A stretch of 64,000 nucleotides of DNA from Desulfobacteraceae bacterium (GTDB taxonomy: Bacteria > Desulfobacterota > Desulfobacteria > Desulfobacterales > UBA5616), in contig VMSV01000196.1 in assembly GCA_013791935.1 (NCBI GenBank), positions 1,745-65,744 on the forward strand. The letters run 5' to 3'. The notes beneath the pieces are model-generated. The model was not told the DNA's origin. It ran no database searches and worked only from the letters and a program-made list of their open reading frames with translations. Positions 1,051 to 19,425 of this stretch are shown in pieces (positions within the stretch are counted from its first letter, which is position 1; every line of letters begins with the position of its first letter). The position numbers and the translations under genes are program-made.

Positions 1051-1065
1051 TAAAATGAGGAAATA

Positions 1066-1653
1066 ATGACATTCGAAACAGCAAAAATTATAGCTGCTTT
1101 TGGTGGTTTTGGACTCGGGATACTAAATTTGGGTATTTCAATTTACAAAGAATTTATAAAGAGACCCAAGTTAGAACTGGAAATTGTAATGTCCAATGTT
1201 TTTTACGTGAATGAAGGGGAATACAATTTTCAAATAAATATTTCATTAATTTCAAAAAATGGCCCCTGTTATTTAAAGGATATTTTTATAAAGCATCCTA
1301 CAAACTGTATTGGCGGATACTCATCTTCAAATATTGTTAATTTCAATAAAGCTATCCAATATACATCAGCAGACCTTTTAGATAATTCTCAGGAAGAATT
1401 TAAAGATAATCTTTTAAAATTATTCAAAAATTCTATCTCCATGAGGGATTTAAAGATTGATGACAACTCCAGGAAATCGATGACTTTTGCTGATCGATTA
1501 ATTACAAGACGTGAAATGGACGGCTATGAAGATTTCCCTCTGAAAAATTGGATCATTGTTATTGATTACGGGGATAAAACAATAACCAAATCTTTAACTT
1601 GGAATATTCATTCTAAAAGTAAAAAAGAAGGTTGCTGGGATAATCATCTATGA
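1066..1653 (+). CDS. Hypothetical protein with N-terminal TM helix; integron gene cassette
   Basis: 195 aa ORF, GAGG RBS, AT-rich, bounded by GTTAGCA on the left and its complement TGCTA|AC (split by the intron) on the right. Confidence 0.8.
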   Translation: MTFETAKIIAAFGGFGLGILNLGISIYKEFIKRPKLELEIVMSNVFYVNEGEYNFQINISLISKNGPCYLKDIFIKHPTNCIGGYSSSNIVNFNKAIQYTSADLLDNSQEEFKDNLLKLFKNSISMRDLKIDDNSRKSMTFADRLITRREMDGYEDFPLKNWIIVIDYGDKTITKSLTWNIHSKSKKEGCWDNHL

Positions 1654-1663
1654 AATTATAAAA

Positions 1664-2429: not shown

Positions 2430-2524
2430 TTGGGAATAAAATGGGAGAATACCTGTTTATAGCTATCGTTTCAGTTTTTTTAATTGAGGCTATAGGATTT
2501 GGAACTTGGTATTAAGGAGAAATA

Positions 2525-3100
2525 ATGACTGGAACTCTTGACTCAGAGGAAAAAAGAAAACTACATTCCGAAATTAATCAGTTAGTAAATCAAAGATTTG
2601 TGTTAAATGGCGCCGCGATCACTCTTTTTGGCGTTATCACAGCTTGGGCCATCCCCAAAAATCAGTCACTACCAGACCCGAATGCTGCAAAACTGGCCTT
2701 TACCGCATCTATATTATTAATAATATTGTTATTTGCCCTTTACCTTGTTAGTCACCTTGCGAGACTTACCACACGAACACTCACAACTTATTTGATTGTA
2801 CGTGGCGAATCACAATGGGAGTGTGATTGGAAAAATTATCGTGATAAAAAGAGCTACATTGCATACACAAAAAGTCAAACGTTACTTTTCTTAGTGCTTG
2901 GCTTTTTATCCACAATTGCACCATTAATTTTCCTATCCATATTTAAAATCACTCTCAATCCAAAAGAAGCGCTTTATGCTTTAGTGCTTTTTGAGCTTTT
3001 GTACACAGTTTTTGTTGCAGGGATGGGGTTCGGCAACTGGTTTTATCCGGAGCAAGATATTGAAAACCGATGGAATGAAGTGTTGAATAATAATCGGTGA
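2525..3100 (+). CDS. Multi-pass (about 4 TM) membrane protein of unknown function
   Basis: AAGGAG RBS; charged N-terminal helix followed by four hydrophobic segments. Confidence 0.8.
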   Translation: MTGTLDSEEKRKLHSEINQLVNQRFVLNGAAITLFGVITAWAIPKNQSLPDPNAAKLAFTASILLIILLFALYLVSHLARLTTRTLTTYLIVRGESQWECDWKNYRDKKSYIAYTKSQTLLFLVLGFLSTIAPLIFLSIFKITLNPKEALYALVLFELLYTVFVAGMGFGNWFYPEQDIENRWNEVLNNNR

Positions 3101-3138
3101 CACATGATACTCATTCAAACAACTTTTAGGACTTTGAT

Positions 3139-3792
3139 ATGGATTTATTCAATAAGATTACTATCTCCAATTTAATTTGGTATATCGTTCCTGGACTGGG
3201 AATGATTTTTTTTGTTTTATTTCCAATATTAGCCTTAAACCCTCACATTGTGAAATTATTTTATGAGCAAATTGGTGAAATTGGCTTATTAATTTTAGGA
3301 ACCATTCTTGGGTTTCTATTTGAAGGTTTGCGCTTATATAGGTTCAGGCCAGGTTATTCGACAATAAAAAAGGGATTCTTTGATGAACTTACGAAAACTA
3401 TTGGAACTGATTTGAATCCTTACTTTGTCCAATCGCATGTGGATGATTTTGCTAGAACAAAAAATTATGTGGGTCTAAGCTTGCATCATGCAATTTGGAT
3501 AATGTTAGGTCAATTTACCATATTGTTTTTATTCGAGGCCCTTTTTTGGGGAATAATGGCCATATATAATTATTATTATATCACTCAATACTATTCTCTA
3601 TTCGGTTTGAATATATCAAGAATAGAATACATAACATATTGCGGAGCATTCTCGGTCACTTTTTTATCAATTGGTTTGCGGTTAATGGTGACCTCAACTC
3701 AAGATCAGAAAAATACAAATAATATGTTTTTAAATTTTGCAAAACAGTATCGACATGACCTTCAAAAATTACTTAATATGGAGGTAGATTGA
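3139..3792 (+). CDS. Multi-pass membrane protein of unknown function
   Basis: 217 aa, about 4 hydrophobic segments, YIVPG motif near N-terminus. Confidence 0.8.
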   Translation: MDLFNKITISNLIWYIVPGLGMIFFVLFPILALNPHIVKLFYEQIGEIGLLILGTILGFLFEGLRLYRFRPGYSTIKKGFFDELTKTIGTDLNPYFVQSHVDDFARTKNYVGLSLHHAIWIMLGQFTILFLFEALFWGIMAIYNYYYITQYYSLFGLNISRIEYITYCGAFSVTFLSIGLRLMVTSTQDQKNTNNMFLNFAKQYRHDLQKLLNMEVD

Positions 3793-3851
3793 TAAAATGT
3801 TTGTAGGTTATGAATAAATTATATTAACCAGATTATCATAGACTAAATATT

Positions 3852-4748
3852 ATGCCGGAAATTAAACAACATTTTTTTTATTTTGAAGGTAAAACAGCCG
3901 ATTTTTTCCCATCAGTAGGATTAAAACTATCGGGAAATTGCAGATTCAAATGCCCCTTTTGTTGTGAGCCAAATCGAACTCAACAAGTATATCCCTTGAA
4001 TAATTTTATTTCCATAGCAAACATTCTTAAAAAATTGGGCACAAGACGATTATGTTTTACGGGGGGCGACCCGCTATCACATAAAGATATAGGGGCCTTG
4101 CTGCAGTACACCAAGTCTTTAGATTTTTTTAATTTGTTATTAACAACAGATGCCAAGGCTCTAAAAGAAAAGCAAAGAGAGGTGATACCATTTGTTAGTG
4201 CCGTGCGTTTTAGTGTTCATGCAATTGGTTCAGAACATGATAATATAGTTGGCTGTCGTGGCTCTTTTAGAGCTACAGAAAAAATGATTGATGTCTTGCA
4301 CGCAGAAAAGATTCCCTGCTACGTCACAACAGTTATAACTACAAAAAATATTATGTTCGTTAAAAATATTTTAGAATGGTGCGTTAAAAATGGAATTCAA
4401 TCATATTTTATATTCGGTCTCATGCGAAGCGGTTTAGGCAATGACTTTATAAGAAAGTATGGGCAAGTTTCAGAACAAGAAATTTCAAATATTATTTCTA
4501 TACTAAGAAATAAATATTCTCCTGAAGATATCGAAATTATATATTATGACTACTATAAACAGGCTGATTGTGTATTGGTATATGGTGATGGAAAAATTAT
4601 AATTGATCCATATCCAAAGCCGCCTACTTTTCAACTAGAAATTGGAAATATTTTCTCAGATACTCGAGAAGACATTTTGAAGTTTTTTTCACACGATCCA
4701 AAGAATTACGATGGTTATGTTAATCACTTTTTGAAGCACAAGAAATAA
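3852..4748 (+). CDS. Radical SAM enzyme (no full SPASM Cys set; viperin/MoaA-like architecture)
   Basis: CRFKCPFC (CxxxCxxC), FTGGDP, FSVH, C-terminal VLVYGDG...IGNIF. Confidence 0.9.
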   Translation: MPEIKQHFFYFEGKTADFFPSVGLKLSGNCRFKCPFCCEPNRTQQVYPLNNFISIANILKKLGTRRLCFTGGDPLSHKDIGALLQYTKSLDFFNLLLTTDAKALKEKQREVIPFVSAVRFSVHAIGSEHDNIVGCRGSFRATEKMIDVLHAEKIPCYVTTVITTKNIMFVKNILEWCVKNGIQSYFIFGLMRSGLGNDFIRKYGQVSEQEISNIISILRNKYSPEDIEIIYYDYYKQADCVLVYGDGKIIIDPYPKPPTFQLEIGNIFSDTREDILKFFSHDPKNYDGYVNHFLKHKK

Positions 4749-4786
4749 GAGCTTTTTTGTATACACCTATAATACCGAATTATTTA

Positions 4787-6646
4787 TTAAGGTTTCTTTG
4801 GGCTTAAAATTATTAAATATTCCATAACATTTTTTTGGGCGGTTCCGCCATGTGATTTATGAACAAATTTCGCAGAATATGAGATAACTTCACAGCCTGT
4901 TTTCTGATAGACGCGTTCAACCACCTCACATATATCGGCTTGACCATTATCAGAGTAGCTCCAAGCGCAATGCCAACCTCTATTCAATATCTTTATAATA
5001 ATATCTATTATTGTAGCTGTGGGCCTGCTGTTAGTTTTTGTGAAGAATTCAGATCGGAACCTATCGTTAGGTTTTGGAGTCAGGCCTATACCACTACAAG
5101 AAGGATATCTATATTCCACGAGAGTCTCTAAAACGTGATAAAAACGGCTATATTCTTCTCTTTTGTAAGGAGCATCAAGGTAAACTATAACTGGCACATT
5201 ATATATCAGCGTATCTAAAGTACATAATGCACTTTCCCAAGGGCCAGGAATCGTTTCAATTTGATTTTTTGTAGAATGGCTTATTTCTGATAGATTGAGT
5301 AACCTGGCTGTAAATTCATGAGTTATTGATTGTGACCTTTTATATAAAATATCAGATATATTGTTTTCGTTTAGAGCTAAATAATTTCTTATTGGAGGTT
5401 GAGCAAAATGCCCACCATAAGTTGTCCCCAAGAAGCTTGTAGTAGTAATCAAAGCTCCTAAAGCCCACATTCTCTCTTTCTTTTCTTTTATTATGTCAAT
5501 TGCATAACGCAAACTATCAATTTCCAAACATTGTCTGAGCCCAAAAAATACATTGGCAAAATATGTTGTAAATAGACAATAAGGGTAAATTGAATTGTCT
5601 TTCCTTCTAATTTGAACCTCTGAGGTTGGGGACCAATCTTTTGTATTACTTGGTTTGCACAAAACTGGGAACTCGCGGACAAATCTTTTATAATCTTCAA
5701 GCAAAGAATCGTCTATCTCTCTACAAAAAACATCCTCTTCGTTTTCAATTTCATCGGCTAATAATGATTGTAACTCGATAAAATGTTTTTTTGCAATTGG
5801 CAAAATTCGCGATAGAAGATCTTTTGCTCCATTCCGGCTAAAACCTCCGCCATGAACTACTGACAATATTCTGCAAAACTCTTGAGCATCGGACGAGTAC
5901 GTTTTCCATATTTTATTAGTGGCACCCGAGACAATTCCAGAACCACACATTAAATCGACTACTACTCCAGACTCTGGGAGCACGGAAGCGATAGCTTCAA
6001 CAATAAAACCACATAATGCTCTTTTTGATCCCATGTAGTAGGCTGACCGGGCAAATTTGTTGATTTCGGTATTATCGATTATTTTTGCGCGATTTAACTG
6101 CGCTTTCACATACTCAATCACTTTGGGGTTAAGAGTGGCGATTGAAGCTTCTGATAAGTATTTACATTTATTTTTATTTATAAGATTATTTTCAGTCGAT
6201 ATCAGTTTATTATGTGATGATATTAAATTTTTTGTTGCTGAATAAAATAATGGATCTGTTATAGAATCTTTATTCAATAAATCTATTATCGTATGAGGGT
6301 TTATTCGGATAGTATCTTGTTCAAACAATTTCTGAGATCTAGGTTTTTCATCATTTTTATCACCACACAAAATGATTGAGTCTATCAAGGCTCTTACATC
6401 TTTCTTTAATACGAATGAGTGCTTCTCAAACTGATAGGTGGGAAGAATACCTACCTCTAATATATATTTTAGCTTTTCAGGATCGATGTCCTTTCCTAAT
6501 TCATTTTGGAGGAAGTCTCTAATGCATTTCTCATTAATAAAAAGGTCCATTTTAGGAGAATTGGCTGATTTGTTCGGCAAATCAATATCGTCTTTATAAG
6601 TATGAACATGAAAAGAAATATTTGTTTTTGTCAATTTATCTTCCAT
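4787..6646 (-). CDS. DNA adenine methyltransferase-like protein (D12/FokI-type) with about 190 aa N-terminal extension and DAPY motif
   Basis: YYMGSK, DLMCGSG (SAM binding), YLDAPY...YSRFYHVLETL. Confidence 0.8.
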   Translation of the reverse strand: MEDKLTKTNISFHVHTYKDDIDLPNKSANSPKMDLFINEKCIRDFLQNELGKDIDPEKLKYILEVGILPTYQFEKHSFVLKKDVRALIDSIILCGDKNDEKPRSQKLFEQDTIRINPHTIIDLLNKDSITDPLFYSATKNLISSHNKLISTENNLINKNKCKYLSEASIATLNPKVIEYVKAQLNRAKIIDNTEINKFARSAYYMGSKRALCGFIVEAIASVLPESGVVVDLMCGSGIVSGATNKIWKTYSSDAQEFCRILSVVHGGGFSRNGAKDLLSRILPIAKKHFIELQSLLADEIENEEDVFCREIDDSLLEDYKRFVREFPVLCKPSNTKDWSPTSEVQIRRKDNSIYPYCLFTTYFANVFFGLRQCLEIDSLRYAIDIIKEKKERMWALGALITTTSFLGTTYGGHFAQPPIRNYLALNENNISDILYKRSQSITHEFTARLLNLSEISHSTKNQIETIPGPWESALCTLDTLIYNVPVIVYLDAPYKREEYSRFYHVLETLVEYRYPSCSGIGLTPKPNDRFRSEFFTKTNSRPTATIIDIIIKILNRGWHCAWSYSDNGQADICEVVERVYQKTGCEVISYSAKFVHKSHGGTAQKNVMEYLIILSPKKP

Positions 6647-6651
6647 CTATA

Positions 6652-7593
6652 TCACAACTTATTCAATTCTTCTTTATATCTTCGTGCGTGAATAACAGTT
6701 TTCAACGCCTCAATAGCGCCATCAAGTACACCCCTTCTAGCTACGTAATCACTACATTTTTTTGCTTCTTCTGAGGCCGTTTCAACAGAGACACCAATTC
6801 CTGACCATGATAGCATTTCAGCATCGTTGTCATTATCCCCAATTCCAAGAATTTGCTCTCGTGTAAGTCCAAGGATATTGGCAACAATTTTCAAAGCCTC
6901 ACCTTTATTGCAATTTATAGGTTTTACTTCAATATAAGTACTGCCATGCGTAAATGAGATATCAGCTATCCCCTTCAAGCTCTTACTTATATCAGCCATT
7001 ACCTGCGTATTGCCCAAGGTGTGAATTACAACTGCAGATGGGCTTATTGATTTATCAATTTCAGACCATTCCAGCCATTTAACAGGCATGAAATTATATT
7101 CCTTATAAGGTTTATCAACAGATGACCACCCGATAGCGTGCTCTTCAAAATCATCTTCTCCAAACCATTTACAGCAGTATGCGATAACTTTCACTCGAAA
7201 TTTTGAAGAAATTTGAACTACCCGAATCATCGACTCATTTGATATTTTTTCTTGATGAATAGGCTTATACTTTTTTAAGATTTGACAATCTTTACCATAT
7301 TTGTACTTTTTTTTAATTATGACACTCCCGTTGTATAATATTATCGGAGTTCCATTTTTAATCGGGAGCTTCGCAATCAAATGCTCTGCTCCTGACAGTG
7401 TGCGGCCTGTCGCTATGATTATCTTAATGTTAGAATTTTTAAATTTATTGGCGAAACTTAATATTTTTTCTGGAAGTTCAGATTCATTAGATTCTAGTAA
7501 CGTCCCATCAAGATCTACGGCAATAAGCCTAATCTTCGAGAAGGGTCTATACAATTCTAAATTATCTATTGAACTAGGTAATAAATTAGCCAT
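6652..7593 (-). CDS. Cof-type HAD-IIB phosphatase
   Basis: AVDLDGTLL, IATGR, YNG, NKGEAL, GDNDNDAEML. Confidence 0.92.
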   Translation of the reverse strand: MANLLPSSIDNLELYRPFSKIRLIAVDLDGTLLESNESELPEKILSFANKFKNSNIKIIIATGRTLSGAEHLIAKLPIKNGTPIILYNGSVIIKKKYKYGKDCQILKKYKPIHQEKISNESMIRVVQISSKFRVKVIAYCCKWFGEDDFEEHAIGWSSVDKPYKEYNFMPVKWLEWSEIDKSISPSAVVIHTLGNTQVMADISKSLKGIADISFTHGSTYIEVKPINCNKGEALKIVANILGLTREQILGIGDNDNDAEMLSWSGIGVSVETASEEAKKCSDYVARRGVLDGAIEALKTVIHARRYKEELNKL

Positions 7594-8584
7594 TTTTAAC
7601 TATATATAGATGGTGCCTTGTTTTAATTGGAGATATTTTGGTTCTATATCCCTTACAATCAATGATAAAATCATTAATTTTTCCAAATGGAGAAAGGATT
7701 TCTTCAATATTTTTTGAAGGAATGATACCATTATCAGCATAATGAAAAACCAACAATTTAAACTTTGCGTTATTTAGAACATCCAATAAAGCTTGCTTTG
7801 ATTCTATCTTGTTATTAAATTTTGATTTAGTGTTAATTTTAATTGGGATGCCTGATTGACCATGCACTACAGGAGTCCCTTCTAAGGCTATTGTCTCAGG
7901 CAAATGATAATAGTGACCATATGAACGTTGATTGTAGGGGGGATCAAGATACAGAATATCAAAATCGCGTCTTTTAACAAGTTCTTCTGCGGTTTCATTA
8001 AAACAATGGCCTTTTCCGTTTAAAGAAGCAGGCATTATAAATTGGAAACGGAATTGGTTCAAAGCCTTTCGGTGCCATTTTTTTAAAAATGCATAATAAG
8101 TGCCTGCTGTATTCGCGACTTTATCTAGACTGTTTATAAGAGAGGCGAGCATTACAGCTTTTTCTTCCCCATTAATCCAGCCTTTTGCCGACCAAAATGC
8201 AATTGCCCTTCTACATGATTGAATCTTTTTTGCGTTATAATTTGTAAAATACTGTCTATTTTCAGAATATTCCCTTACAAACCAACCATTCTTTGGAGGT
8301 AGCGAGTTCATAAAGGTTTCCAAATCTGTTAGGTTATTAAGGTTCAGTTTGTTAATAATTTTCTTAAAAGATAGTGGCTTTTCATATTTTAGTCGTGCTT
8401 TTTGGAATAGAAAAGGAAATTTCAAAATATCTCCACTCCAAACATCATAACCCATCGATTTAAAATGTGATGCAACTGAGCCTAAGCCCCCAAAAGGATC
8501 GCAAAAGGAACCTATTGGTATTTGCCTTGAAACCAATTCATATATATTATTTATTGTAGATATTTTAGAACCTATATATCTCAT
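7586..8584 (-). CDS. DNA adenine methyltransferase (D12 class, FokI/NlaIII-like)
   Basis: MRYIGSK, DPFGGLGSV, VANTAGTYYAFLK, YLDPPYNQRSYGHYYHL. Confidence 0.9.
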   Translation of the reverse strand: MRYIGSKISTINNIYELVSRQIPIGSFCDPFGGLGSVASHFKSMGYDVWSGDILKFPFLFQKARLKYEKPLSFKKIINKLNLNNLTDLETFMNSLPPKNGWFVREYSENRQYFTNYNAKKIQSCRRAIAFWSAKGWINGEEKAVMLASLINSLDKVANTAGTYYAFLKKWHRKALNQFRFQFIMPASLNGKGHCFNETAEELVKRRDFDILYLDPPYNQRSYGHYYHLPETIALEGTPVVHGQSGIPIKINTKSKFNNKIESKQALLDVLNNAKFKLLVFHYADNGIIPSKNIEEILSPFGKINDFIIDCKGYRTKISPIKTRHHLYIVKNG

Positions 8585-9341
8585 TTAATTATCAATATTA
8601 TTATTATATTTAATGTTCTAAACGATGAAACAATATGCATCACATACACAAAACAACGATATTTTGGAATATTAAATCAATACAAAATTATGCAGAACCT
8701 TTGCTAATAAGTAAATGGAATTTTAGGTTACGCAATGAAAGACATTCCCTATAGAATATGAGTACCTCAAATTTTTTCTTAAGCCAATCACAATTCATTC
8801 ATTCATATTTACATGATAATTATAGCAGGGGTTTTTTATCGGCAAATTAATAAAATGGAACAATTATTTTTTATGAAGGATTACACATTGATTTGGTGTT
8901 GATAACATTATTTATTATTAACATATTGATCAATTAATTAAAAGCCTCAGCTTACTCGAATAGTTATCATATGAATTAAGAATTTATTCCTATTCTTTTT
9001 CATAATAAATATTATTTGTTTATTATGAAATAAATTTAACCCCCCCCACCTGCTGGTAATTCACAGTCATTAAAAAGAGTATGGGGTTTTGTGAAGCCCA
9101 ATCATCAACCACTTTTCCAAATAATGAATGCATATTTGAAACATCAAGCATATCAAAATTCTCAGAACAAATTTCTTTTTCTCCCATTATTTTTTCACCT
9201 TCTGATTTTTGATATTTTCAGCGCAGCTAAGCCTGACTCCGTCTATTTAGCCTTCAGAATATTCAAGTGTGTACTGGTAGGCCCTTAAACCACGTTGTTT
9301 TTTACATCGGTAAAACCTTTAAAATAAAAACTTTGTTCAGG

Positions 9342-10169
9342 TTAGGCTTTGCCATTGGAAGGGGTTTTAAAAATTTCCTCAACAACCCCTTCAAAAGATG
9401 AAACCGTGTCCGCCAACCCTATTTGAACTGCCTCTCCACCGCTAAAAAGGCCAGCCATGGTGTCATTAACCATTTTTTGATCAAGTTTCCGGTTTCTGGC
9501 CACTGCCTCCACAAGAATCTGATAGGCGTAATCAACCTGTTTCTGAATAGCCTCCCTGCCCCGATCCGATAAGGGGGCATCCGATGACCTTTCATTTACT
9601 TTTTCACCGGCATATACAGTGGTATATTTTACTCCAAATTTTTCATTGTAGCTGGATAGATCCTCATGAACCGCAATAATTCCGATAGACCCAACTATCG
9701 CAGTCCTGGAAAGAAATATTTTATCCGTTGCCGAGGCAATCAGATACCCTGCTGAAAGGGCCTTTTCGTTTGCCATGGCATAGATAGGTTTAATTTCCCT
9801 GGAGTTGTATATTTCATCTGCAAAATCGAAAACACCGGCAATGTCTCCCCCTGGTGTGTCCAGGTCAAATAGGATGGCCTTGACATCCGGGTTTTTTATA
9901 GCCGAACGAAAATCTTTCCGAAGATCCATGTAAGAGGTGCGCCAACTCCATCCGGATCTCTTATAAACCATCCCACCGTTTACAGAAATCACGGCAAGGC
10001 CGTCAGAAACCTCCAGGCAGCTTGTAGAGTCTTCAAACATGGACACGGAGGTTTCGGTATTTTGATTGTTTAATGCGACAAGGATTTCTCTTGCAGCCTC
10101 GATAGAAACCGCCAAAGGTTTTTGGATCAGGTGAAAGGGAGAAAAATGGTTTTCATTCATTTTAAACAT
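9342..10169 (-). CDS. S49 family peptidase, lambda gpC-type prohead maturation protease domain
   Basis: LAVISVNG, ILFDLDTPGG, ALSAGYLIAS, VGSIGII, VARNR, GLAD motifs. Confidence 0.88.
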   Translation of the reverse strand: MFKMNENHFSPFHLIQKPLAVSIEAAREILVALNNQNTETSVSMFEDSTSCLEVSDGLAVISVNGGMVYKRSGWSWRTSYMDLRKDFRSAIKNPDVKAILFDLDTPGGDIAGVFDFADEIYNSREIKPIYAMANEKALSAGYLIASATDKIFLSRTAIVGSIGIIAVHEDLSSYNEKFGVKYTTVYAGEKVNERSSDAPLSDRGREAIQKQVDYAYQILVEAVARNRKLDQKMVNDTMAGLFSGGEAVQIGLADTVSSFEGVVEEIFKTPSNGKA

Positions 10170-10301
10170 CAGCGTTTCCTTTTATGGATTCTTTATGAAA
10201 TCCCGGTCCGGCAAGGTGAACATGGAAGGTTTGGGGAGACACCTTGCCGGTCCATGGCCCCCGGGATTGCCATTTAACATGGAGCTTTCTCCCCAAAGCA
10301 A

Positions 10302-11051
10302 TTACCCGGTCATCACACAGGGGTCAGTTCTGCATGAAGAACATTGGGCTTTACCCGTATCTTCGATTGCAAGGCAATTCGAGAACGTGTTCAGCCCGGC
10401 CTTTTCCAGAATCCTTTGGATCTCGGTTTCCGGGTCATAATTTTCAAGGGATTTTTCAAGACCGGCTTTTTCCTTTGACAGTCTGTTCAATTTCATTTTC
10501 ATCGAAGTCCCATCTGTAGTTGATTTTCTTTCCTTTTCAACCTGCCGTTTAAAATATTCGTAATCCTGGCCCAATAGCGTTGACCGGTTTATGTTCAACT
10601 CAGGGCCTGTTTTCATAAGCCCTGTGCTGGGTGTGTAAGAGTATCTTTCGCCTTCAATTTGTTCAAAATAAACCTGACATTTAGCCGCCATAGAGAGGAA
10701 TTCGTTTAGGCTTTCTTGCTTAATTCGTGACAGATTGGTGCATTCTTGTTTGATCTCATCAGCCCGCCTTTTAAAAGTAACAGGGATAGAATCGGCCAAT
10801 TTGCCTTTTAGCTTTTTCAAATAAAGAGAGCAGGCGTCAATTTTCGACTTGGTATCGGCAAACACCCTCTTTTCCTGTTCAAGCAGTTCTCCGACCTCCT
10901 GGTTCATAAAGGCTTTTAATTGCAAATCAGTGACACGCTCATTTGCAGCGTTGTATTGCGCTCTTAAATCATTTTGAAATTGAACGACCTCAACAAAATT
11001 TTGGGCCAATTCTTCCAAGCTTGCGTTTTCTTTCGACAGTTTTGAAAACAT
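10302..11051 (-). CDS. Hypothetical coiled-coil protein with C-terminal Cys cluster
   Basis: 249 aa helical/heptad-rich ORF with AAGGA RBS, co-oriented in satellite operon. Confidence 0.7.
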   Translation of the reverse strand: MFSKLSKENASLEELAQNFVEVVQFQNDLRAQYNAANERVTDLQLKAFMNQEVGELLEQEKRVFADTKSKIDACSLYLKKLKGKLADSIPVTFKRRADEIKQECTNLSRIKQESLNEFLSMAAKCQVYFEQIEGERYSYTPSTGLMKTGPELNINRSTLLGQDYEYFKRQVEKERKSTTDGTSMKMKLNRLSKEKAGLEKSLENYDPETEIQRILEKAGLNTFSNCLAIEDTGKAQCSSCRTDPCVMTG

Positions 11052-11090
11052 TGGGATATCCTTTCTTGGTTTAAAGAGAATCAGGTATTC

Positions 11091-11309
11091 TTACATAGTA
11101 CTTTGATGCGTTTTATCTTCCCGGAAGCCTTTGGCCCTGGCTTGTGCGTTTTCAATTAAATGATTGCCCTGGCCGCTTGCCGGAAAGCCTGATTCTGACT
11201 TTTCAATTAATGTATCATTTCTTTTTTTTGCATCAGCAATCAAGGGATTGCCGGTTGATGAAATGATTCCCCGATTTTCTGGCTTGTTTGATTGTATGGT
11301 GCTTAGCAT
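11091..11309 (-). CDS. Small protein with two GNxLIxxAxxR repeats (scaffold-tail-like)
   Basis: 72 aa; GNPLIADAKKR and GNHLIENAQAR; AAGGAAAGAG upstream; start overlaps previous ORF. Confidence 0.6.
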   Translation of the reverse strand: MLSTIQSNKPENRGIISSTGNPLIADAKKRNDTLIEKSESGFPASGQGNHLIENAQARAKGFREDKTHQSTM

Positions 11310-11632
11310 GGCTCTTTCCTTTCTTTGGGTTTGGTATGGTTTTTAAAATCGACCTTAATCACTTTGTTCCCTATGGGTCGCTTGGTAAAGGCTTCCACGT
11401 GTCTGTCTATTTCCTGGACCGTATGAAACATGGGTTTGGACTGCTCAAACAGCGTCATCATGGCTTGGACCCCAAACGGACTTTTAAAGGAGTACTTGTC
11501 ATTCAGATCCAGGCTCTTTTTAACGATGTCGGTAATGTCGTTGGCCAGGTGTTTTAATTTCTTAATTTCCTCTAAATTTTCGCGTCTCATCATAAGAATG
11601 TTTTTCGTCCGTTCCCCGCAAAACCAATCCAA
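11303..11632 (-). CDS. Hypothetical protein
   Basis: 109 aa ORF directly downstream of origin; ends with phage-typical NKVIKVDF; true start may be a downstream Met. Confidence 0.55.
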   Translation of the reverse strand: MDWFCGERTKNILMMRRENLEEIKKLKHLANDITDIVKKSLDLNDKYSFKSPFGVQAMMTLFEQSKPMFHTVQEIDRHVEAFTKRPIGNKVIKVDFKNHTKPKERKEPC

Positions 11633-11686
11633 GGAGAGGAATGGTCCTGTGGTCTTTTGGTTAAAGGTTCCGACCGTTTTTTAAAT

Positions 11687-11881
11687 GGTCACCGTTTAGG
11701 TGACAATCCGGTGACTATCCAGGTGAGGGTCGACCATCAGCAAACCCGTTTCGGTTCTATCTTTGGTGACTATGGTGACTATTTTTCTAGCAAATATTAA
11801 ATATTAAAAAATAAAATATTAATAATAATAAAGTTATGTAAAAAAGCGTGTAAAAGTCACCTAAGGTCACCAAAGGTCACC
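11687..11881. repeat. Iteron replication origin of the satellite
   Basis: GGTGAC at 11699, 11710, 11765, 11774 and inverted GTCACC at 11688, 11856, 11866, 11876 (10-bp phasing) around an almost pure A/T core (about 11781-11845), immediately 3' of the helicase gene. Confidence 0.85.
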
Positions 11882-11885
11882 GGAA

Positions 11886-13559
11886 TCAGATTTCAAGTTT
11901 AAGCCCAATTCCATAATATCGATAAACACCCGAGACCCTTCTTTTCTCAAAGCGCTTGGTCATCATGGACCCAAAGGCCTTCATTTTTGGCACCCGTTTT
12001 GAAATGTTCAGTTCAAACCATTCCTCGAAGGCCTCGTATAATTCTTTTGCCCCGGCGGTCGCATCCGGGTTGATGATGCAGCAGTCATCCAGAAAATCAG
12101 CCAGCATGTCAGAATCCCTTTTGAATTCTGCGGTTGCTTCCACAACTTTAAGAGGCGGGCAAAGGCCTTGCTTTTGATACAGATGGCACCCCCGGATCAG
12201 CCAAGCCAGTATTTCGGGTGCCTCATCCTTCATTTTCTCAAACAAATGCTTATCAGCCCGCCGCTCATTGTCTGCCTGGGGCTCACGATTGACAAAGGAC
12301 ACCTCAAAACGCACTCTTAAGCACCTCTCCCAAAAAGCGAAGTCGTCCGCCGGTGCATTCGGGATATGGTTTGTGGATAGGATAAGGGTGTGGGTCGGTT
12401 CAAATTTGGTGAACATCTTATCGTGGGGAAGGCGTGCGATCACGGTATCGTCACTTGACAACCACTTGACCCTGGCCGGTGAAATCTTTTGATGAGGGTC
12501 CGTTTCCGACGCAATGGCAAGGTTAACCCGGTAAAGCATCATCAGATCCGGTGAAGGCCCGGAGGAATTTTTAAACCGTCCCTGGTCGAGAAGCATCTCG
12601 CTTGGAATGACGGTTGCCATTGGACCCAGGATGAACAGCAATATTTTGATCAGAAGGCTTTTGCCGTTTCTGCCCTGGCCTTCAAAAATGATAAATATGT
12701 GATCCTTGTTTTTTCGAAGAAGGGTCATGCCAAGCAGCCGCTGGAGGAACAAAACCATTTCCGGATCACCGTTCATGGTTTCATACAGAAACTTGAGGAA
12801 TCTCTTTGGGGTACCATACCAATCAGCCAATGGATGAGGGATGCATTGGGATTTCAGATCTTCCGGGAGACCTGGCCGGACAAGGCTTGAAACAAGGTTG
12901 TAAATATTTTTCTCGCAATGGGAAAAGCAAATTTCATTGGGCTCCGTGTCGAACTCTTCATTTAAAACGCCAAGGCCATTATAAGTGGTATGGGCGAAAA
13001 ACACACACTCGTTCCGGCCTTTGTTTGTCCGGAGCCATCTCGCCAGTTTCAGGCACCCCTTCATGGTTTTTTTCAGCCTGAATATTTTCGGGCTTTCCGG
13101 ATCAAGTTCTTTGATCTCCTTGTCAATGTCAAAGGCCTCTTCCAAGAGCCATTCCACGATGCCCTCAATAGCTGCCAGATACTGCCCTTTTTGATCAATT
13201 TGCCAGTTCGGCCCTTTGTCGTAGAACTCCCATTGACTGGTGGTTTTGTTGTGCAAAAAACATTTTCTATATCTGAACTTATAGAGTTCTGAGACGCCAA
13301 CAGCCCCGGTATCGTAGTACCCGGTATCCCGGATTAAGGCCTTTGCGCTTTCCCTTGATGGCTGGATACTTGTGGACCCAGATCCACCGTCATCCAGATC
13401 CGGTCCGGATTCTTCGGAAACCCTTAGCTTGACCACATCGGCGATCTGCCTATCGGTTTGCTGTAGAATAAAAGAATCAAGGCATGATACCGGGAAGCCC
13501 GGATCTTCGTCCGCCTCACCGTGTCCTGAGACCCTATATTCAATATTATCATCAGGCAT
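11886..13559 (-). CDS. P4/D5-family primase-associated SF3 helicase (D5_N + helicase + C-terminal wHTH)
   Basis: Walker A GQGRNGKS, Walker B IASE, STNHIP, AFWERC, LYEAFEEW, YYGIGLK. Confidence 0.9.
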   Translation of the reverse strand: MPDDNIEYRVSGHGEADEDPGFPVSCLDSFILQQTDRQIADVVKLRVSEESGPDLDDGGSGSTSIQPSRESAKALIRDTGYYDTGAVGVSELYKFRYRKCFLHNKTTSQWEFYDKGPNWQIDQKGQYLAAIEGIVEWLLEEAFDIDKEIKELDPESPKIFRLKKTMKGCLKLARWLRTNKGRNECVFFAHTTYNGLGVLNEEFDTEPNEICFSHCEKNIYNLVSSLVRPGLPEDLKSQCIPHPLADWYGTPKRFLKFLYETMNGDPEMVLFLQRLLGMTLLRKNKDHIFIIFEGQGRNGKSLLIKILLFILGPMATVIPSEMLLDQGRFKNSSGPSPDLMMLYRVNLAIASETDPHQKISPARVKWLSSDDTVIARLPHDKMFTKFEPTHTLILSTNHIPNAPADDFAFWERCLRVRFEVSFVNREPQADNERRADKHLFEKMKDEAPEILAWLIRGCHLYQKQGLCPPLKVVEATAEFKRDSDMLADFLDDCCIINPDATAGAKELYEAFEEWFELNISKRVPKMKAFGSMMTKRFEKRRVSGVYRYYGIGLKLEI

Positions 13560-13574
13560 ATGCAGGAGAGCCTT

Positions 13575-13964
13575 TTACCGGTTTACGAGGAGTTGTTCGG
13601 CTATCTTTTCCCGCCAGCGTCTCACGGTGGATGCATTGGCTTTGATCGCTTTGGCGATTTCTACATCCTTCCACCCGAGTTTAAAAAGAAGGCAGCACAA
13701 AAAAATGGCGGAAAAAGGGACCTTGTTATGTGAAAAAATAGTGTCGGTGATGGCAAAAAACTTTTCCTTGCAGACCATGCAGAAGCATTGCTGGTTTGAC
13801 CAGAACCTTTCCGGCAGCTGGCCATATTCAGCGCCACAATGTGGGCAGGCCGGAGACTTATGGATCTTCCTGATAAAATAATCCTCGCACCGCTCTTCAT
13901 TGAAAAGATTTGGCGAAATGTCATTGAATACATCATTTATGAAGTCTATTCCCATGAACATCAA
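13575..13964 (-). CDS. Zn-ribbon + HTH small protein
   Basis: CPHCG...CMVC and C-terminal HTH EIAKAIKANASTVRRW. Confidence 0.75.
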   Translation of the reverse strand: MMFMGIDFINDVFNDISPNLFNEERCEDYFIRKIHKSPACPHCGAEYGQLPERFWSNQQCFCMVCKEKFFAITDTIFSHNKVPFSAIFLCCLLFKLGWKDVEIAKAIKANASTVRRWREKIAEQLLVNR

Positions 13965-14032
13965 ATTCCTTTCATTGATTGTGATTTAACTCCCAGTTCA
14001 TTTTCCATTCCATTTCTAAATTTCAAATGTAA

Positions 14033-14085
14033 CCGAAACCCGCGCCTCTGTGACCCGTATAGAAAAAAAGTTCCGGGAAGGACCC
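14033..14085 (-). other. Lambda-type cohesive-end packaging site (cosQ + cosN-like)
   Basis: Minus strand GGGTCCT-TCCCGGAACTTTTTTTCTATACG-GGTCACAGAGG-CGCGGGTTTCGG versus lambda GGGTCCT-TTCCGGTGATCCGACAGGTTACG-GGGCGGCGACCT-CGCGGGTTTTCG. Confidence 0.75.
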
Positions 14086-14367
14086 GCAGGCCTCGGGCAT
14101 TGCCTGAGCCCGTTTGACCTTTGGCCTGTTTGGTTTTGGTGGGTGGTCCGGAGGGAGATAAAACCGGCTTTTTTTGACCAGAAAATCGATAAATAAGAAA
14201 TAAATATAGTCTGTAAAAAGTATAAAATAAAAAGATGGATAGAGATAATTTTAAATGAGTAGAGAGAGTGTTTCATTTTTCGATTCCGCTTCGGACCAAT
14301 ATATTCCGCAAATTGCCTAAATTTATCCGGATAGAAAGAAGGGTGGAATTATATTATTTGTGATTAT

Positions 14368-14613
14368 TCAACATTTGGTTCTTGAATTTAACCATCCAAC
14401 AAGATGGGTTCTCAAGACCGCTGGGGATCGCCCCACATGAAAAATCTTAGAGGCGATCGCTTCATCACGGGTTTTGCCAGTAACCATATTTCGAAAGCCA
14501 CCACGTGAATAAGGAAACCCAGGCAGTCTATCTTTATCAGCTTCTTTAAGTAAAATAGGATTAGGCCAACCATTTTCCTCTGCGATACCTTCCCAAAGTT
14601 TATTGTCTTCCAT
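14368..14613 (-). CDS. AlpA/excisionase-like small wHTH protein
   Basis: 81 aa; YSRGGFRN...IFHVGRSPAVLRTHLVGWL pattern; position typical of alpA in satellites. Confidence 0.65.
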   Translation of the reverse strand: MEDNKLWEGIAEENGWPNPILLKEADKDRLPGFPYSRGGFRNMVTGKTRDEAIASKIFHVGRSPAVLRTHLVGWLNSRTKC

Positions 14614-14688
14614 TTTTAATACCCTTTCTTAAAAAAAAATTATATTTAACTGTACGATCTGACGCAAAAATACATTGTGCATCAATAA

Positions 14689-14791
14689 TTGCAATACGTG
14701 CAAATGGCTTATTTTTGCAAACCCAAGAGTTGCAAATTAATAGGTTTGCAATCCAAAGGATTGCAAATTTGGATAGTTGGTTCTTATGCAG
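14689..14791. promoter_or_regulatory. Array of TTGCAA palindromes, putative operator of alpA-like operon
   Basis: TTGCAA at 14689, 14715, 14730, 14746, 14761 plus variants at 14698 and 14786; 15-16 bp periodicity. Confidence 0.6.
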
Positions 14792-14852
14792 AAAAATAAG
14801 GGGCGGATTAAATCAATTCACTTTAGGTGACAAAAGAATGATCATTTGAAGA

Positions 14853-15761
14853 CTAAAGCAAACCTTCTTCTTGAAGGTCTCTTCTTATAGTTGCGGTGGT
14901 TACTATCATTTCACTAACCATTTTTTTTAAGCTATTTATTTCTTCTGTTGTAGCGGCACTCTGAAGCAATTTCATTAATGCATCAATTTCTTTCTTTTTA
15001 ATCCCAGGTTTCAACAAAGCCGACTCAACTATCCTATATTTCAAAACTGCACCAATAAGTCGATCTCTAACCATTGCAGATTTATTTAAACGCACATCCT
15101 CGAACTGTTTCTCATGAAATGCGCTTGCCACTAATGTCTTTCTTTCACGTTTACGAGTCGAAATTATTTTTATGCCTTTTTTACTTTTGTCGGAATTCGG
15201 ACCTTTTATCGAGCCCGAAAGTATGGTTTCGCTTAAGGCTTTATGAATAATTCTTTCTGTTGGTAAACTCAGTAGGAATAACGAGGTAAAGTTTATTTTG
15301 TCCAAATTACTTTCAAGCCATACATAGAAAAATATTAAGACTTCCAAATGAACAAAAAACAGATCTTCGTCATCAGGTGGGAAGTAATATGGGCTAAGCA
15401 TATCTTCAAAAAAATCTGTTATCAAATAATAATCAGGTTCGTGAAAAAAATCATACTTAAAATTGCTTACTTTAATAAGGCTTTGGTCTTTTTCGGGAAA
15501 TCTAGGTCTTATGCCAAAATCCTTTTTCCCCCTAAGCTCTTTATATAACTTATCAAGTGTCTCGTGATAATATTTATTTTCACTTTTAGACGCAACAAGA
15601 GCCTTACGGGATATATGGTACCGAAAGGCCAACTTTCTGAGGAAAAAAGATTGTTGAGAAATTACTTGAAAAATTAATATGTTATCTATTCGATTCTCCG
15701 ACGCTATCAATTGACTGATAAAGTATTTGTCTAATTTATCATTTTCTGTTTTCTCATTCAT
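14853..15761 (-). CDS. Hypothetical protein with C-terminal HTH (putative element regulator)
   Basis: 302 aa; C-terminal VTTATIRRDL resembles a DeoR-type recognition helix; sits between int and alpA-like gene. Confidence 0.65.
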   Translation of the reverse strand: MNEKTENDKLDKYFISQLIASENRIDNILIFQVISQQSFFLRKLAFRYHISRKALVASKSENKYYHETLDKLYKELRGKKDFGIRPRFPEKDQSLIKVSNFKYDFFHEPDYYLITDFFEDMLSPYYFPPDDEDLFFVHLEVLIFFYVWLESNLDKINFTSLFLLSLPTERIIHKALSETILSGSIKGPNSDKSKKGIKIISTRKRERKTLVASAFHEKQFEDVRLNKSAMVRDRLIGAVLKYRIVESALLKPGIKKKEIDALMKLLQSAATTEEINSLKKMVSEMIVTTATIRRDLQEEGLL

Positions 15762-15849
15762 GCCTTCTGCAATTCCTTCTTAGATGACCCGGCAATGCTT
15801 GCAAGGGTAGTAAACTCTTCGATTCATCAACCTATGCCGGGTCAGATAA

Positions 15850-17097
15850 TCATGCCTTTTCAGTCCTTTTCAAATCATAAAATTCCGAAATCTTTTGTTG
15901 ACTTTTTTCCAGCCGTTTAACAGCAGCTTTAAAGGTGTCCGGCTGCAAATGCGCATAACGCCGGACCATCGCAAAAGAACTATGACCCATCAATCCTTGC
16001 AATATATATAGATCGGTGCCAGCCGCCGCATGCCAACTTGCAAACGAATGCCGGCAACTGTAAAAAACCAGTTTATGCCTTCTGTCAGTGATTCCGTCAT
16101 TAAAACCTTTTTGATCAACCACCTCCTGGAACAGACGCGGTGTTTCAAGATATGGCCTTTTCCCGGATCTCATGAAAATCAATGTATCTGGCTTGGCGTC
16201 TTGGGACTTTGAATGACGATCGACCAGAACTTGCTTTAAATCATCGGTCATGAATGCATGTCTGTTTTTGGAGTTCTTGGTATCCAGAATTTGAATTTGT
16301 TCGTTTCCAAAATCTATTACTCCCCAGGTCAATTTTAAAATTTCACTGGATCTCAGACCGCACCGGAAAGCCAACAAAACCATTGTATATGTGTCCAGGT
16401 CTTTGGTTTTTAATTCAGATAGGAGATTGTCGGCTTCATCCCGAGAAAAAAAGCTTAACCGACTGTTATCCGCTTCCGGAGGCTTAACCTGGGAAACAGG
16501 ATTCTTCCCATAAAAAATGTCATTGCGAATCGCATAATTAAAAACCTGCCGTGCAACAGCAAGAGCATATTTAATGGTACGGGGAGTAAGATGCAAGTCA
16601 CCCATGTTTTTTTTGATCATTTCAAAATGAAAAGGTGCTATTTTCCCGATCGGAAGGTTTCCGATCACGGGCGCTAAATATCTCTCAAAGAGTGGGACCT
16701 CGCGTTTCCATCCTTTTCGGGTTCTTTTGGTGGCTTTGTTAATTTCTAAATATTTACCCCACACATCGGAAAATTTAATGTTTTTTCGCTCTATTTCTTC
16801 GTCAGCCTTTTTTTGGGCCTTCTCATCTTTATTTTGCTTAAGTCTTTTAGCCTTTAAAGTAGTCGGTCCTGTACCATGGGTTTTGTTCTCTTTGAGCTCG
16901 TGAACTTTGCTTATGGCTTTTTCAAGGGTCATACCATCAAAGAGCCAGCCAAATCCTTCCTCAAGCCTCGTCTCACCAACAGTGTGGCGATATTGGTAAA
17001 ATACATCGCGCTGGGTTTTTATCCCCTTTTTTCGGGTTCTGGTAGGGTGGTAGCGGAACCTTAATCCCTTAACTGATGTTTGGTGCCATGTGAACAT
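15850..17097 (-). CDS. Tyrosine recombinase/integrase
   Basis: Catalytic GLRSSE, K (TKNSK), YSCRHSFAS, LMGHS, RRYAH; N-terminal arm-binding domain. Confidence 0.95.
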   Translation of the reverse strand: MFTWHQTSVKGLRFRYHPTRTRKKGIKTQRDVFYQYRHTVGETRLEEGFGWLFDGMTLEKAISKVHELKENKTHGTGPTTLKAKRLKQNKDEKAQKKADEEIERKNIKFSDVWGKYLEINKATKRTRKGWKREVPLFERYLAPVIGNLPIGKIAPFHFEMIKKNMGDLHLTPRTIKYALAVARQVFNYAIRNDIFYGKNPVSQVKPPEADNSRLSFFSRDEADNLLSELKTKDLDTYTMVLLAFRCGLRSSEILKLTWGVIDFGNEQIQILDTKNSKNRHAFMTDDLKQVLVDRHSKSQDAKPDTLIFMRSGKRPYLETPRLFQEVVDQKGFNDGITDRRHKLVFYSCRHSFASWHAAAGTDLYILQGLMGHSSFAMVRRYAHLQPDTFKAAVKRLEKSQQKISEFYDLKRTEKA

Positions 17098-17127
17098 TTA
17101 TTCCCCCGGTATTTTGCCAATTTTAAA

Positions 17128-17392
17128 TGGTGGCTAAGCATGGGTGGTGGTTAAATTAATAATCATTTAATAATAAATAGTTACGTTTAATCAACTCTCT
17201 TTTTATACTTGATCTAAGGCTTTCTTTTCAGGGAAATCCTCCGGGTTAAAAAACGGTGGCGAAGTGGTGGTTTCTCCATAAAGCCTTGCTCTGTAAGGCC
17301 TTACGGGAAGCGCCTTGGGCGATTTTTAAAAAAATAATTCATTTTGATTTTGATAAATTCCTCCGTAAATTTCGCCACCAAAAAACCACCAT
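17128..17392. repeat. Putative integrase arm-type sites
   Basis: Paired GGTGGC...GTGGTGGTT motifs near 17128-17152 and 17255-17272, inverted CGCCACCA...AACCACC near 17372-17392. Confidence 0.5.
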
Positions 17393-17507
17393 TTAATTAT
17401 GATTTTGGATGATTTTAGATTTTGAAGGATGAAGCACACATTAGATGTATATAAATGATATGTCAACAAAAAATGACAGAATGTTGAAATACGTGATGGT
17501 CAATTTT

Positions 17508-17567
17508 GAGGACTCAAAATCCTCCGGGGGCAACCCCATGGGAGTTCGATTCTCCCCCTCGGCACCA
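17508..17567 (+). tRNA. 3' fragment of tRNA-Leu(CAA), att site (not a full tRNA)
   Basis: GAGGA-CTCAAAA-TCCTC anticodon arm, long variable arm, GTTCGATTC T-loop, CCA end; no D-arm or 5' acceptor strand upstream. Confidence 0.88.
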
Positions 17568-19410: not shown

Positions 19411-19425
19411 AAATTAGGAGTAACC

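Follow-up and report, generated by a model that had tools for sequence, protein, structure and literature searches.

How could a small chromosomal island that carries a packaging-like site and a phage head protease, and no recognisable gene for terminase, portal or capsid, be moved by a phage? The question is raised by an element integrated at a tRNA-Leu gene of a Desulfobacteraceae bacterium, in the 64,000-nt stretch of DNA analysed here ("the window"; contig VMSV01000196.1, positions 1,745 to 65,744). An earlier note on this DNA had proposed a satellite of a lambda-like helper phage with a cohesive-end (cos) site, acting on prohead assembly through its own S49 protease. Our analysis points, with slightly better than even confidence, to an element that is a cos-type satellite, or was one until recently, with a module mimicking the tail of a phage scaffold, and it probably belongs to a new family of cos-type phage satellites with hosts in the same bacterial order, groundwater bacteria among them. 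The likeliest capsid-hijack module is a pair of proteins, a tail mimic (p72) and a coiled-coil protein (cc249), and not the protease. In the following, C44 is the contig holding the window and G000 its genome, and all other G and L handles denote other genomes and loci that were examined.

A tRNA-integrated element without terminase, portal or capsid genes

The core of the element comprises nine open reading frames (ORFs), which run from 17097 down to 9342, are all open and all lie on the minus strand, as the earlier note had described. The right border is an attachment site, attR (17508..17567, plus strand), formed by the 3' part of a tRNA-Leu(CAA) gene from the anticodon stem to the CCA end. 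A genome-wide match of this 3' part located its attL partner in an intact tRNA-Leu(CAA) gene at C44:379-465, ~1.3 kb left of the window start, hence the element runs for 18.8 kb (C44:466-19311) and its part in the window ends at 17567. The left border had previously been set at 9342, giving an element of 8.2 kb and leaving out 10.6 kb of it. The two tRNA copies match over 60 nt with 2 mismatches (exact repeat, 33 nt), and the mismatches compensate for each other as a pair in the variable arm, which fits a tRNA copy brought in with the element. ARAGORN reads 17483-17567 as tRNA-Leu(CAA), with an Rfam score below gathering (30.7 bits) and a 5' half unlike that of the intact copy; what had been called a tRNA-Leu fragment holds as a 3' fragment at 17508-17567, not as a full tRNA.

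The tyrosine integrase (415 aa; 15850..17097, minus strand) was confirmed by PF00589 (E 7.9e-27) and phrog_1 (E 1.1e-52). Family libraries detected no terminase, portal, capsid or tail gene among the 19 ORFs of the element (nine core, ten cargo), and tblastn with 23 reference proteins detected no terminase, portal or capsid in it, in line with what had been noted from the letters.

A conserved cos-like block

Relatives were sampled from 400 genomes of the same order, and prophage and element loci were fetched around the matches. The cos-like site of the window's element (13995..14091, minus strand) consists of the cosQ-like sequence GGGTCCTT at 14085-14078, TACG, an 11-12-nt block resembling a cohesive end at ~14055-14044, CGCGGG, and TGGAA repeats resembling cosB. 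Its heptamer is the same as that read in lambda at 48473-48479, the position of cosQ, and the distance from the first G of the heptamer to TACG|G is 30 nt, as read in lambda (L062). Likeness to lambda alone does not support the call, as such an alignment is at chance level; it is comparative conservation across related loci that carries the call. The sequence GGGTCC occurs 59-243 nt upstream of the gene in every locus (15/15) encoding a homolog of the Zn-ribbon protein zn129 described below. Ten of these zn loci were aligned, with GGGTCC(T/C)T invariant in 10/10 and the GG at the nick-like site, C.CG and the TGGAA.AATGGAA block invariant or nearly so. Among the 17 larger loci with a short D5 helicase gene, 9 also have the cos motif, 104-221 nt upstream of that gene.

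Prophages with the cos block also encode a gpA-type large terminase subunit (TerL, phrog_15). The available excerpt of one study describes high conservation, among lambda-like phages, of the 7-bp cosQ and of the CG pairs found at the nicks (PMC4669245). The block thus has a cosQ-like heptamer, a CG-flanked nick pair 11-12 nt apart, repeats and an association with gpA-type terminase, all features of a predicted lambda-type site, and on this sequence evidence we read it as a putative lambda-type cos with predicted cleavage. BLAST of the cos region against 50,697 phage records returned chance matches only (E 5).

The first gene after the cos-like site encodes zn129 (13575..13964, minus strand), a protein with a Zn-ribbon and a helix-turn-helix (HTH), both of which had been recognised before. 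Its four Cys are invariant in 13/13 homologs, with Zn_ribbon_IS1595 matching 6/13 family members and HTH_23 matching 9/13, and the solved structures similar to it are generic zinc-finger matches only. Homologs were found in 15 of the 400 genomes; scans of metagenome_contigs and viral_contigs with a two-sequence zn alignment gave no relatives. In full prophages the zn gene stands between a D5 primase-helicase gene and those for the small terminase subunit (TerS) and TerL (phrog_15 E ~1e-142), and after TerL come portal, S49, decoration and capsid genes, in lambda order. In the window's element (13999-14016) and in L024, the ATG at which the prophage zn genes begin is followed by 5-13 codons and then a stop, and a new start of the gene lies 121-243 nt from the cos motif. 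The TGGAA repeats conserved near the zn start may serve as a DNA site and not as coding sequence.

The next gene encodes a short D5/P4-type superfamily 3 helicase of 557 aa without the N-terminal primase domain (11886..13559, minus strand). The D5/P4 assignment made earlier is borne out by TIGR01613, "phage/plasmid primase, P4 family" (163 bits against a cut-off of 108.7), and by phrog_1156 (E 4e-67), and PHROG primase profiles of 750-860 positions match only from position 345 or later. Directly after this gene lies a putative replication origin (11687..11881), in which GGTGACY iterons flank an AT-rich stretch; 7 of the window's 19 GGTGACY matches fall here, as expected of the iteron origin that had been suggested. 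Element-specific short repeats just after the helicase gene are present in 6/7 related elements. A scan of viral_contigs with the D5 helicase found no matches.

Related elements in the same order

The short-helicase profile matched 43 of the 400 genomes at E<=1e-30; 20 loci were fetched, and the 17 larger ones were those compared for cos. Six of the 17 are prophages in which the helicase and a primase gene are followed by a gpA-type TerL (TerS visible in 5/6, portal in 2/6). In these lambda-like prophages (L093, L095, L097, L100, L101, L107), the short D5 and separate primase genes stand between the cos-like block and TerS/TerL, where replication genes are not usually placed.

Repeats of a tRNA gene's 3' part flank seven elements, 9.4-18.8 kb in size, namely the window's element, that of G001, and L099, L102, L103, L108 and L119. 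The repeat is exact over 33 nt in the window's element, and in the other six its length ranges from 52 nt to at least 70 nt. The integration sites are tRNA-Pro for L102 (host G259, ~10.4 kb), tRNA-Arg for L099 (host G231, ~10.7 kb) and L103 (host G341, ~16.2 kb), tRNA-Leu(GAG) for L108 (host G165, ~12.4 kb) and the G001 element (host G001, ~15.9 kb), and tRNA-Lys for L119 (~9.5 kb, repeats of at least 70 nt), which has a different replicase and no S49 gene. The tblastn search with the 23 references found no TerL, portal or capsid in the window's element, G001, L096, L099, L102, L103 or L108, nor were any found in L119.

Some of these elements carry other phage-type genes. Tape-measure homologs are present in G001, L103, L108 and L096 (L102 has a weak one), and tail-completion (Neck1) homologs in G001 and L103; a TerS-like gene is present in L103. 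The tape-measure homologs are 845-1088 aa long (phrog_991 E 7e-50 in G001), and the stretches with these tail-related genes include L024 2050-4728 and 10476-11102 and L103 6418-9638. A head-protease homolog occurs in 4/8 satellite-like elements, of S49 type in the window's element and G001 and of phrog_3244 type in L102 and L099. Members of the family may hence re-size or alter helper tails as well as heads.

The G001 element comes from the same bacterial family as the window genome. Its proteins are 45% (zn), 33% (helicase), 34% (S49) and ~20% (cc) identical to those of the window's element, and its gene order differs. As for the gene order expected to recur elsewhere, the architecture of cos and short D5 does recur in tRNA-integrated elements, and G001 shares the modules in another order.

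A small protein that mimics the tail of gpC-type proteases, and its coiled-coil neighbour

In lambda C/Nu3, the C-terminal part carries the protein into the procapsid. The C-terminal extensions of gpC-type S49 proteins end in one of two conserved tails, and the tail type of the window's S49 clade is N-P-L-(I/L)-x-D-A-x-(K/R)-R-A. This motif is found twice in p72, a 72-aa ORF (11091..11309, minus strand). We searched 89,517 six-frame genome ORFs with a hidden Markov model (HMM) built on the C-terminal 32 residues of eight homologs from outside the window, and p72 was the sole significant match genome-wide (E 3.2e-4, 2 domains; runner-up E 0.67). Its BLAST matches sit at the extreme C-termini of homologs. 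The S49 gene had been regarded as the only recognisable head gene of the element, a statement that does not survive the finding of a gpC-type tail motif, in two copies, in p72. The three small ORFs of 109, 72 and 249 aa in this part of the element are present as first described.

A similar small ORF is found in other elements. In G001, a 119-aa ORF ends in the second tail type and matches the C-terminus of that element's own S49 protein (E 3e-8), as well as the C-termini of three prophage gpC-like proteins. Where an S49 gene is present, the tail type of the mimic is that of the own element's S49 clade. In both the window's element and G001 the small tail ORF lies directly upstream of the coiled-coil (cc) gene, and L110, a contig of 4.1 kb, carries a helicase gene, a cc gene and an adjoining 98-aa ORF ending in the second tail type. 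A later search of the 400 genomes with nothing but the cc profile matched five, with one new strong match, L119, in which the gene directly after the cc gene encodes a 146-aa protein with the first tail motif in its last residues. A tail ORF therefore adjoins the cc gene in all four elements with a strong cc match (the window's element, G001, L110 and L119). Around the weaker cc matches (L120, L121 and one L102 ORF) no tail ORF was detected at E<0.01. In L099, a phrog_3244-type protease (8080-9108, minus strand) ends in the second (D-F-M...) tail (tail HMM E 5.6e-6), hence the same tail is found on two unrelated protease families.

The neighbouring protein cc249 (249 aa; 10302..11051, minus strand) is a coiled-coil protein which, on the evidence of homolog searches and a structure model, belongs to a new family with a new fold. 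Among 1.84 billion proteins it has 82 representative clusters at E<=1e-3 (32 at <=1e-10), and nearly all of these relatives are colinear and 200-280 aa long. A search of 45 family members against PHROGs gave one marginal match, phrog_77 (E 6.8e-4), and no other; a scan of viral_contigs found nothing, and a word-based homolog search found only cc249 itself. The model (predicted local distance difference test, pLDDT, 91.3) is a long helical hairpin followed by a beta-hairpin and a small helical domain, with no match at E<=0.001 in PDB or BFVD. A structure-based lead to Psu (score 0.84, template-modelling scores 0.38/0.48) was rejected: with the first model, the Psu structure 3rx6 ranked only 47th (E 4.3), and with the second, high-confidence model it was not among the 50 matches listed.

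A complex of cc249 and p72 was predicted with a score of 0.39 (runs 0.01, 0.40 and 0.39), against 0.00 for the best of three controls; the runs share at least 27% of contacts and the partner pLDDT is at least 43. The mark used here is reached by 58/80 solved complexes and 2/110 mismatched pairs, and at scores of 0.60 or less by 7/80 and both of the mismatches. The prediction gives weak support to the pairing.

An S49 domain without its extension

The last core gene (9342..10169, minus strand) encodes an S49 head-maturation-protease domain that lacks the C-terminal extension and has Val at the conserved Lys. That it is a protease domain of this family, as first stated, is clear from PF01343 (106.8 bits, cut-off 24.9) and from phrog_53, "head maturation protease" (E 3e-77, profile positions 16-291 of 583). 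The nearest homologs are 58%, 48% and 42% identical and 415-422 aa long. It retains 26/31 of the columns that are >=80% conserved among 36 homologs, including the catalytic Ser139 (Ser in 36/36). The sequence downstream of the stop showed no relic of the extension. A genome_contigs scan with S49 found two distant loci only, in Herbaspirillum and Cupriavidus.

The nearest relatives with readable context are four G020 copies (43%), which are ordinary gpC-type genes with the portal gene before and decoration and capsid genes after them, in prophage head modules of the order W-portal-protease-D-capsid. These copies are not degraded versions of the element, nor are the related small elements decayed prophages in which head genes flank the protease. 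G020 (L018-L021) is one genome with four copies of a lambda-like head module and nearly identical gpC-type proteases.

At the position of Val191, the aligned Bacillus subtilis SppA chain 3RST has Ala. According to the part of the SppA study available, the K199A protein is proteolytically inactive and active sites are formed by two adjacent monomers of the octamer (PMC7568657). With Val at the catalytic Lys and K199A SppA inactive, the S49 domain is probably inactive, unless the neighbouring Lys190 substitutes. It may be a subunit that poisons the helper protease, or a gene in decay, and is most likely an accessory rather than the main effector; our confidence in any specific role for it is much lower than that in the satellite reading as a whole. 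The S49 gene is missing from the related element L119, and together with the lost scaffold part and the Val at the catalytic Lys this speaks against the earlier proposal that the element acts through the protease.

A proposed mode of action

Upon helper induction the element would excise and then replicate by means of the short D5 helicase at the iteron origin. A lambda-like helper would supply terminase, capsid and tail, and its terminase would cut and package the DNA at cos, where zn129 may act as a DNA-recognition factor in the place of Rpp/TerS. By analogy with CpmB of SaPI1, the tail copies of p72 may compete with a gpC/Nu3-type scaffold of the helper for the site that it occupies on the capsid protein, and cc249 could use its coiled coil to change the curvature or size of the shell. 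An element of 18.8 kb would call for either a smaller shell or packaging as a multimer. Since S49 sites are built from neighbouring subunits, a co-assembling pseudo-protease would poison the helper protease. The complete scenario, a widespread, undescribed lambda-cos satellite family in which a tail-mimic protein and a new-fold coiled-coil protein hijack the capsid, a Lys-less S49 pseudo-protease poisons the helper and tails may be re-sized, is considerably more speculative, and we think it unlikely to hold in all of its parts.

The missing helper and other points to weigh

A number of observations speak against a functional satellite, beginning with its helper. The window genome is 98% complete (270 contigs) and contains no gpA-type TerL, lambda-type portal or second phage-type S49 gene; the co-resident lambda-like helper prophage that had been anticipated was not found there. 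The sole recognisable prophage of the genome, on C139, is Mu-like and unlikely to be the helper of a cos element. This myovirus prophage with a Mu-like head (G000 C139:33600-57800) was matched by computation in its capsid only; read by eye, its gene order is TerS, TerL, portal, Mu F-like protein, protease/scaffold, capsid, sheath, tube, tape measure and baseplate. The cos/zn module of the window resembles prophages whose gpC has the other tail type, and the G020 prophages, with the p72-type tail, have no zn129 match, hence no single known phage combines both.

The stretch is present in eight groundwater metagenome runs from five studies, among them two runs that may be its source. Contigs of four runs (four studies) were compared with C44:1-20000 at 90% likeness, and the pieces listed were identical to the element, with no empty site, circle junction, cos end or accumulation of ends seen. 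Contigs cannot show ends, so the run data are neutral on packaging. One long "skip" joint from 633 to 13829 appeared in a single contig (side 22), below the tool's own reliability bar.

Further points lie in the element itself. The lambda likeness of the cos-like region, taken alone, is at chance, as 46/300 shuffles reach its local-alignment score and other places in the window align to lambda cos as well as this region does. Unusually, the short-D5 prophages have the motif ~4 kb upstream of TerS. The S49 protein stops at residue 275, where the extension of its 415-485-aa homologs begins, and carries two substitutions at conserved positions, K191V (Lys in 34/36 homologs) and F219L (Phe in 36/36). 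The N-terminal part found in prophage homologs is missing from zn129. Only a short stretch of p72 matches the motif, with single BLAST E-values of 0.03-0.3 in a small database, and cc249 has no relation to capsid, scaffold, Sid or Psu proteins detectable by Foldseek or in PHROGs. Finally, the cargo holds a group II intron remnant; like the altered S49 protein and the shortened zn129, it looks like decay.

Several of these observations are what one would expect of a defective remnant of a satellite or of a rearranged prophage piece, fixed in the chromosome, mobilised no more and decaying while its defence cargo remains under selection. The truncated and substituted S49 gene, the shortened zn129 with a stop after the ancestral start, the missing helper, the 10.6 kb of low-GC cargo with its intron remnant, the 2/60 differences between the att copies and the identical sequence at flank-like depth in contigs of several studies, without an empty site, are all consistent with this. 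Yet none of the nine core ORFs is interrupted and neither att copy has been lost, the two att mismatches are compensatory, as expected of a copy that came in rather than of decay, and the gene order cannot be reached by deletion from that of a prophage, in which the protease follows the portal. The modules are moreover kept in distant relatives (D5 33%, zn 45%, S49 34% and cc ~20% to G001), which argues for selection on them. We regard the remnant as a less likely explanation, though one to be taken seriously. A satellite acting mainly through its stand-alone S49 protease, as an active enzyme or as a scaffold on helper head proteins, appears somewhat less likely again. The strong phrog_53 match (E 3e-77), the 26/31 conserved columns and intact catalytic Ser would suit it, as would the phage-type protease in 4/8 elements and, in the portion of the SatelliteFinder paper at hand, a serine protease in phage-inducible chromosomal islands of the capsid-forming kind (cfPICIs) and occasionally in phage-inducible chromosomal islands (PICIs; PMC10085698). 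Against this stand the Val at a position that is Lys in 34/36 homologs and aligns with the Ala of 3RST, the inactivity of K199A in the excerpted SppA study (PMC7568657), the extension lost without a relic, and L119, which keeps the cc and tail genes without S49.

The GGGTCC block could also be a promoter, operator or RNA element of an island that is never packaged, with the tail mimic, the cc protein and the dead protease serving as anti-phage decoys. The block always stands at the start of a co-oriented string of genes, and the cargo is of defence type (a PD-T4-6-like kinase, E 4e-46, methyltransferases and a weak pVip-like match). The motif is, however, the 7-bp element read at the cosQ position of lambda, 30 nt from TACG|G with CGCG 11-12 nt on, and gpA-type terminases accompany it. 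Small elements without any terminase keep the block, for which an island acting only as a decoy would have no use, and we consider this explanation improbable. The reading we prefer remains that of a present or recent cos-type satellite with a scaffold-tail mimic.

Comparison with known satellites

P4 integrates at tRNA-Leu and carries defence cargo, and its core genes include Sid/Psu and Delta/Epsilon. The window's element resembles P4 (of P2) in its tRNA-Leu integration, its cos site, the C-terminal domain of a P4-family primase/helicase, its small size relative to the helper and its defence cargo. It differs in having no Sid, Psu, Delta or Epsilon homolog, in a helicase without the primase half, and in a cos of lambda type, not P2 type. 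Measured against the definition of P4, it has the integrase and the alpha-type helicase (helicase half only), and no Sid, Psu, Delta or Epsilon family among its core ORFs, while p81 occupies the place where an AlpA-type regulator would be expected.

The cos-type PICIs (EcCICFT073/PICI-A) share with it a tRNA- or site-specific integrase, a replicase with an adjacent origin and the absence of TerL, portal and capsid. In the available part of one account, E. coli PICIs also have a helper-like cosQ/cosN followed within ~100 bp by a gene for a small DNA-binding protein of ~130-150 aa (PMC9026076), the same layout as here. However, the cos-proximal protein of the window's element is a Zn-ribbon with HTH_23, rather than a winged-helix Rpp/TerS homolog. 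Full prophages also encode homologs of this Zn-ribbon protein, and neither AlpA, nor TerS (three of the tblastn references), nor a capsid-morphogenesis homolog (capsid-like protein or Ppi) was detected in the element. Of the five core components in the SatelliteFinder definition of PICIs, it shares integrase and replicase, and cos-type PICIs have no counterpart to the module of tail mimic, cc249 and S49.

With lambda gpC/Nu3 the element shares the S49 family (phrog_53), the fold and Ser139, and related prophages keep the W-portal-S49-D-capsid order, whereas its own protein lacks the catalytic Lys (Val instead), the Nu3-like C-terminal extension and any portal or capsid neighbour. The logic is closest to that of SaPI1 CpmA/CpmB, where a small protein copies the C-terminal capsid-binding motif of the helper scaffold; in the part of the source available, the 80alpha scaffold and CpmB have a C-terminal motif in common and are competitors for the capsid protein (PMC5644958). 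There is no sequence relation to CpmB, the copied tail here is that of an S49 protease-scaffold and is present twice in p72, and the partner is a coiled-coil protein of 210-280 aa; binding and size change are suggested here by analogy.

As described in the accessible sections of PMC10085698, cfPICIs encode their own TerL, portal, capsid, head-tail adaptor and connector, all P4-like elements have an AlpA-type regulator, and elements with only integrase, regulator and primase-replicase form a "Type C" that the SatelliteFinder authors set aside. No TerL, portal, capsid, head-tail adaptor or connector was found in the 19 ORFs, and a serine protease is all that links the element to cfPICIs. The statement that it would fit no defined family held for P4, PICI and cfPICI on gene content, and under the scheme as described it would at best be a set-aside "Type C" element. 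In the satellite literature, as far as the portions available go, we found no account of a cos/short-D5 element with a tail mimic and S49, nor of satellites with a tape measure or prohead protease in this architecture.

Satellites are known in detail from few families (P4, SaPI/PICI, cfPICI, PLE and PICMI), almost all of Proteobacteria and Firmicutes. If the satellite reading is correct, a new family from uncultured groundwater bacteria would be recognisable by a lambda-type cos beside a short D5 gene, and plausible helper lineages could be identified in the same order. To our knowledge CpmB of SaPI1 is the only worked-out case of scaffold-tail mimicry so far; p72 would be a second, independent one, copied from the tail of an S49 protease-scaffold. 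The element would also provide a candidate pseudo-protease and a new protein fold linked to capsid assembly, and a deeply conserved cosQ-like heptamer accompanying gpA-type terminases well beyond the enterobacteria would help in finding cos sites and satellites in metagenomes.

Other core genes, cargo and flanking DNA

The remaining core ORFs gave few matches. Between the integrase gene and the cos-like site, a 302-aa ORF (14853..15761, minus strand) occupies the position where a regulator is expected; it had been listed as an HTH regulator, and has no family in Pfam, PHROGs, NCBIfam or PADLOC. The 81-aa p81 (14368..14613, minus strand) has a 61% identical homolog in the same relative position in L119, an element whose integrase is 33% identical to that of the window's element; p81, earlier listed as alpA-like, likewise has no family in these four libraries, and no AlpA, HTH_17 or excisionase model matched it. 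Upstream of p81 (14685..14770, minus strand), six TTGCA(A/C) repeats read from the sequence lie inside ~85 nt and may form an operator. The 109-aa p109 (11303..11632, minus strand) matched nothing in Pfam, PHROGs or NCBIfam, and PADLOC gave zero matches on the core ORFs.

The cargo occupies 10.6 kb left of the S49 gene (window 1..9341 and on to C44:466), with a GC content of 36.5% against 41.9% in the core and 48.6% in the genome. It includes a PD-T4-6-like Ser/Thr kinase (E 4e-46), a radical S-adenosylmethionine protein with a weak pVip-like match (E 6e-12), and two D12 DNA methyltransferases with a HAD hydrolase in between; no restriction enzyme was recognised in the cargo ORFs. The stretches with PADLOC or family matches of defence type are window 3-890 (plus strand, starting at C44:1333), 3852-4748 (plus) and 4787-8584 (minus). 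The intron remnant consists of group II intron RNA domains at window 1980-2269 (minus strand; RF02001 125.9 bits, RF01998 53.7 bits), with no intact reverse-transcriptase ORF alongside. Summed contig depth in the four runs was 17-433 over C44:3336-4669, which includes the intron, against ~0-36 elsewhere in the element, hence the group II intron is a multi-copy repeat in these communities.

To the right of attR, the C-terminal remnant of a second integrase (window 17584-17793, minus strand) reads towards the tRNA fragment. Two gene pairs, toxin-antitoxin-like by eye, follow at window 17974-20101 (plus strand), and GC remains lower to ~23000. The integrase remnant and these gene pairs are probably an older, decayed island at the same tRNA.

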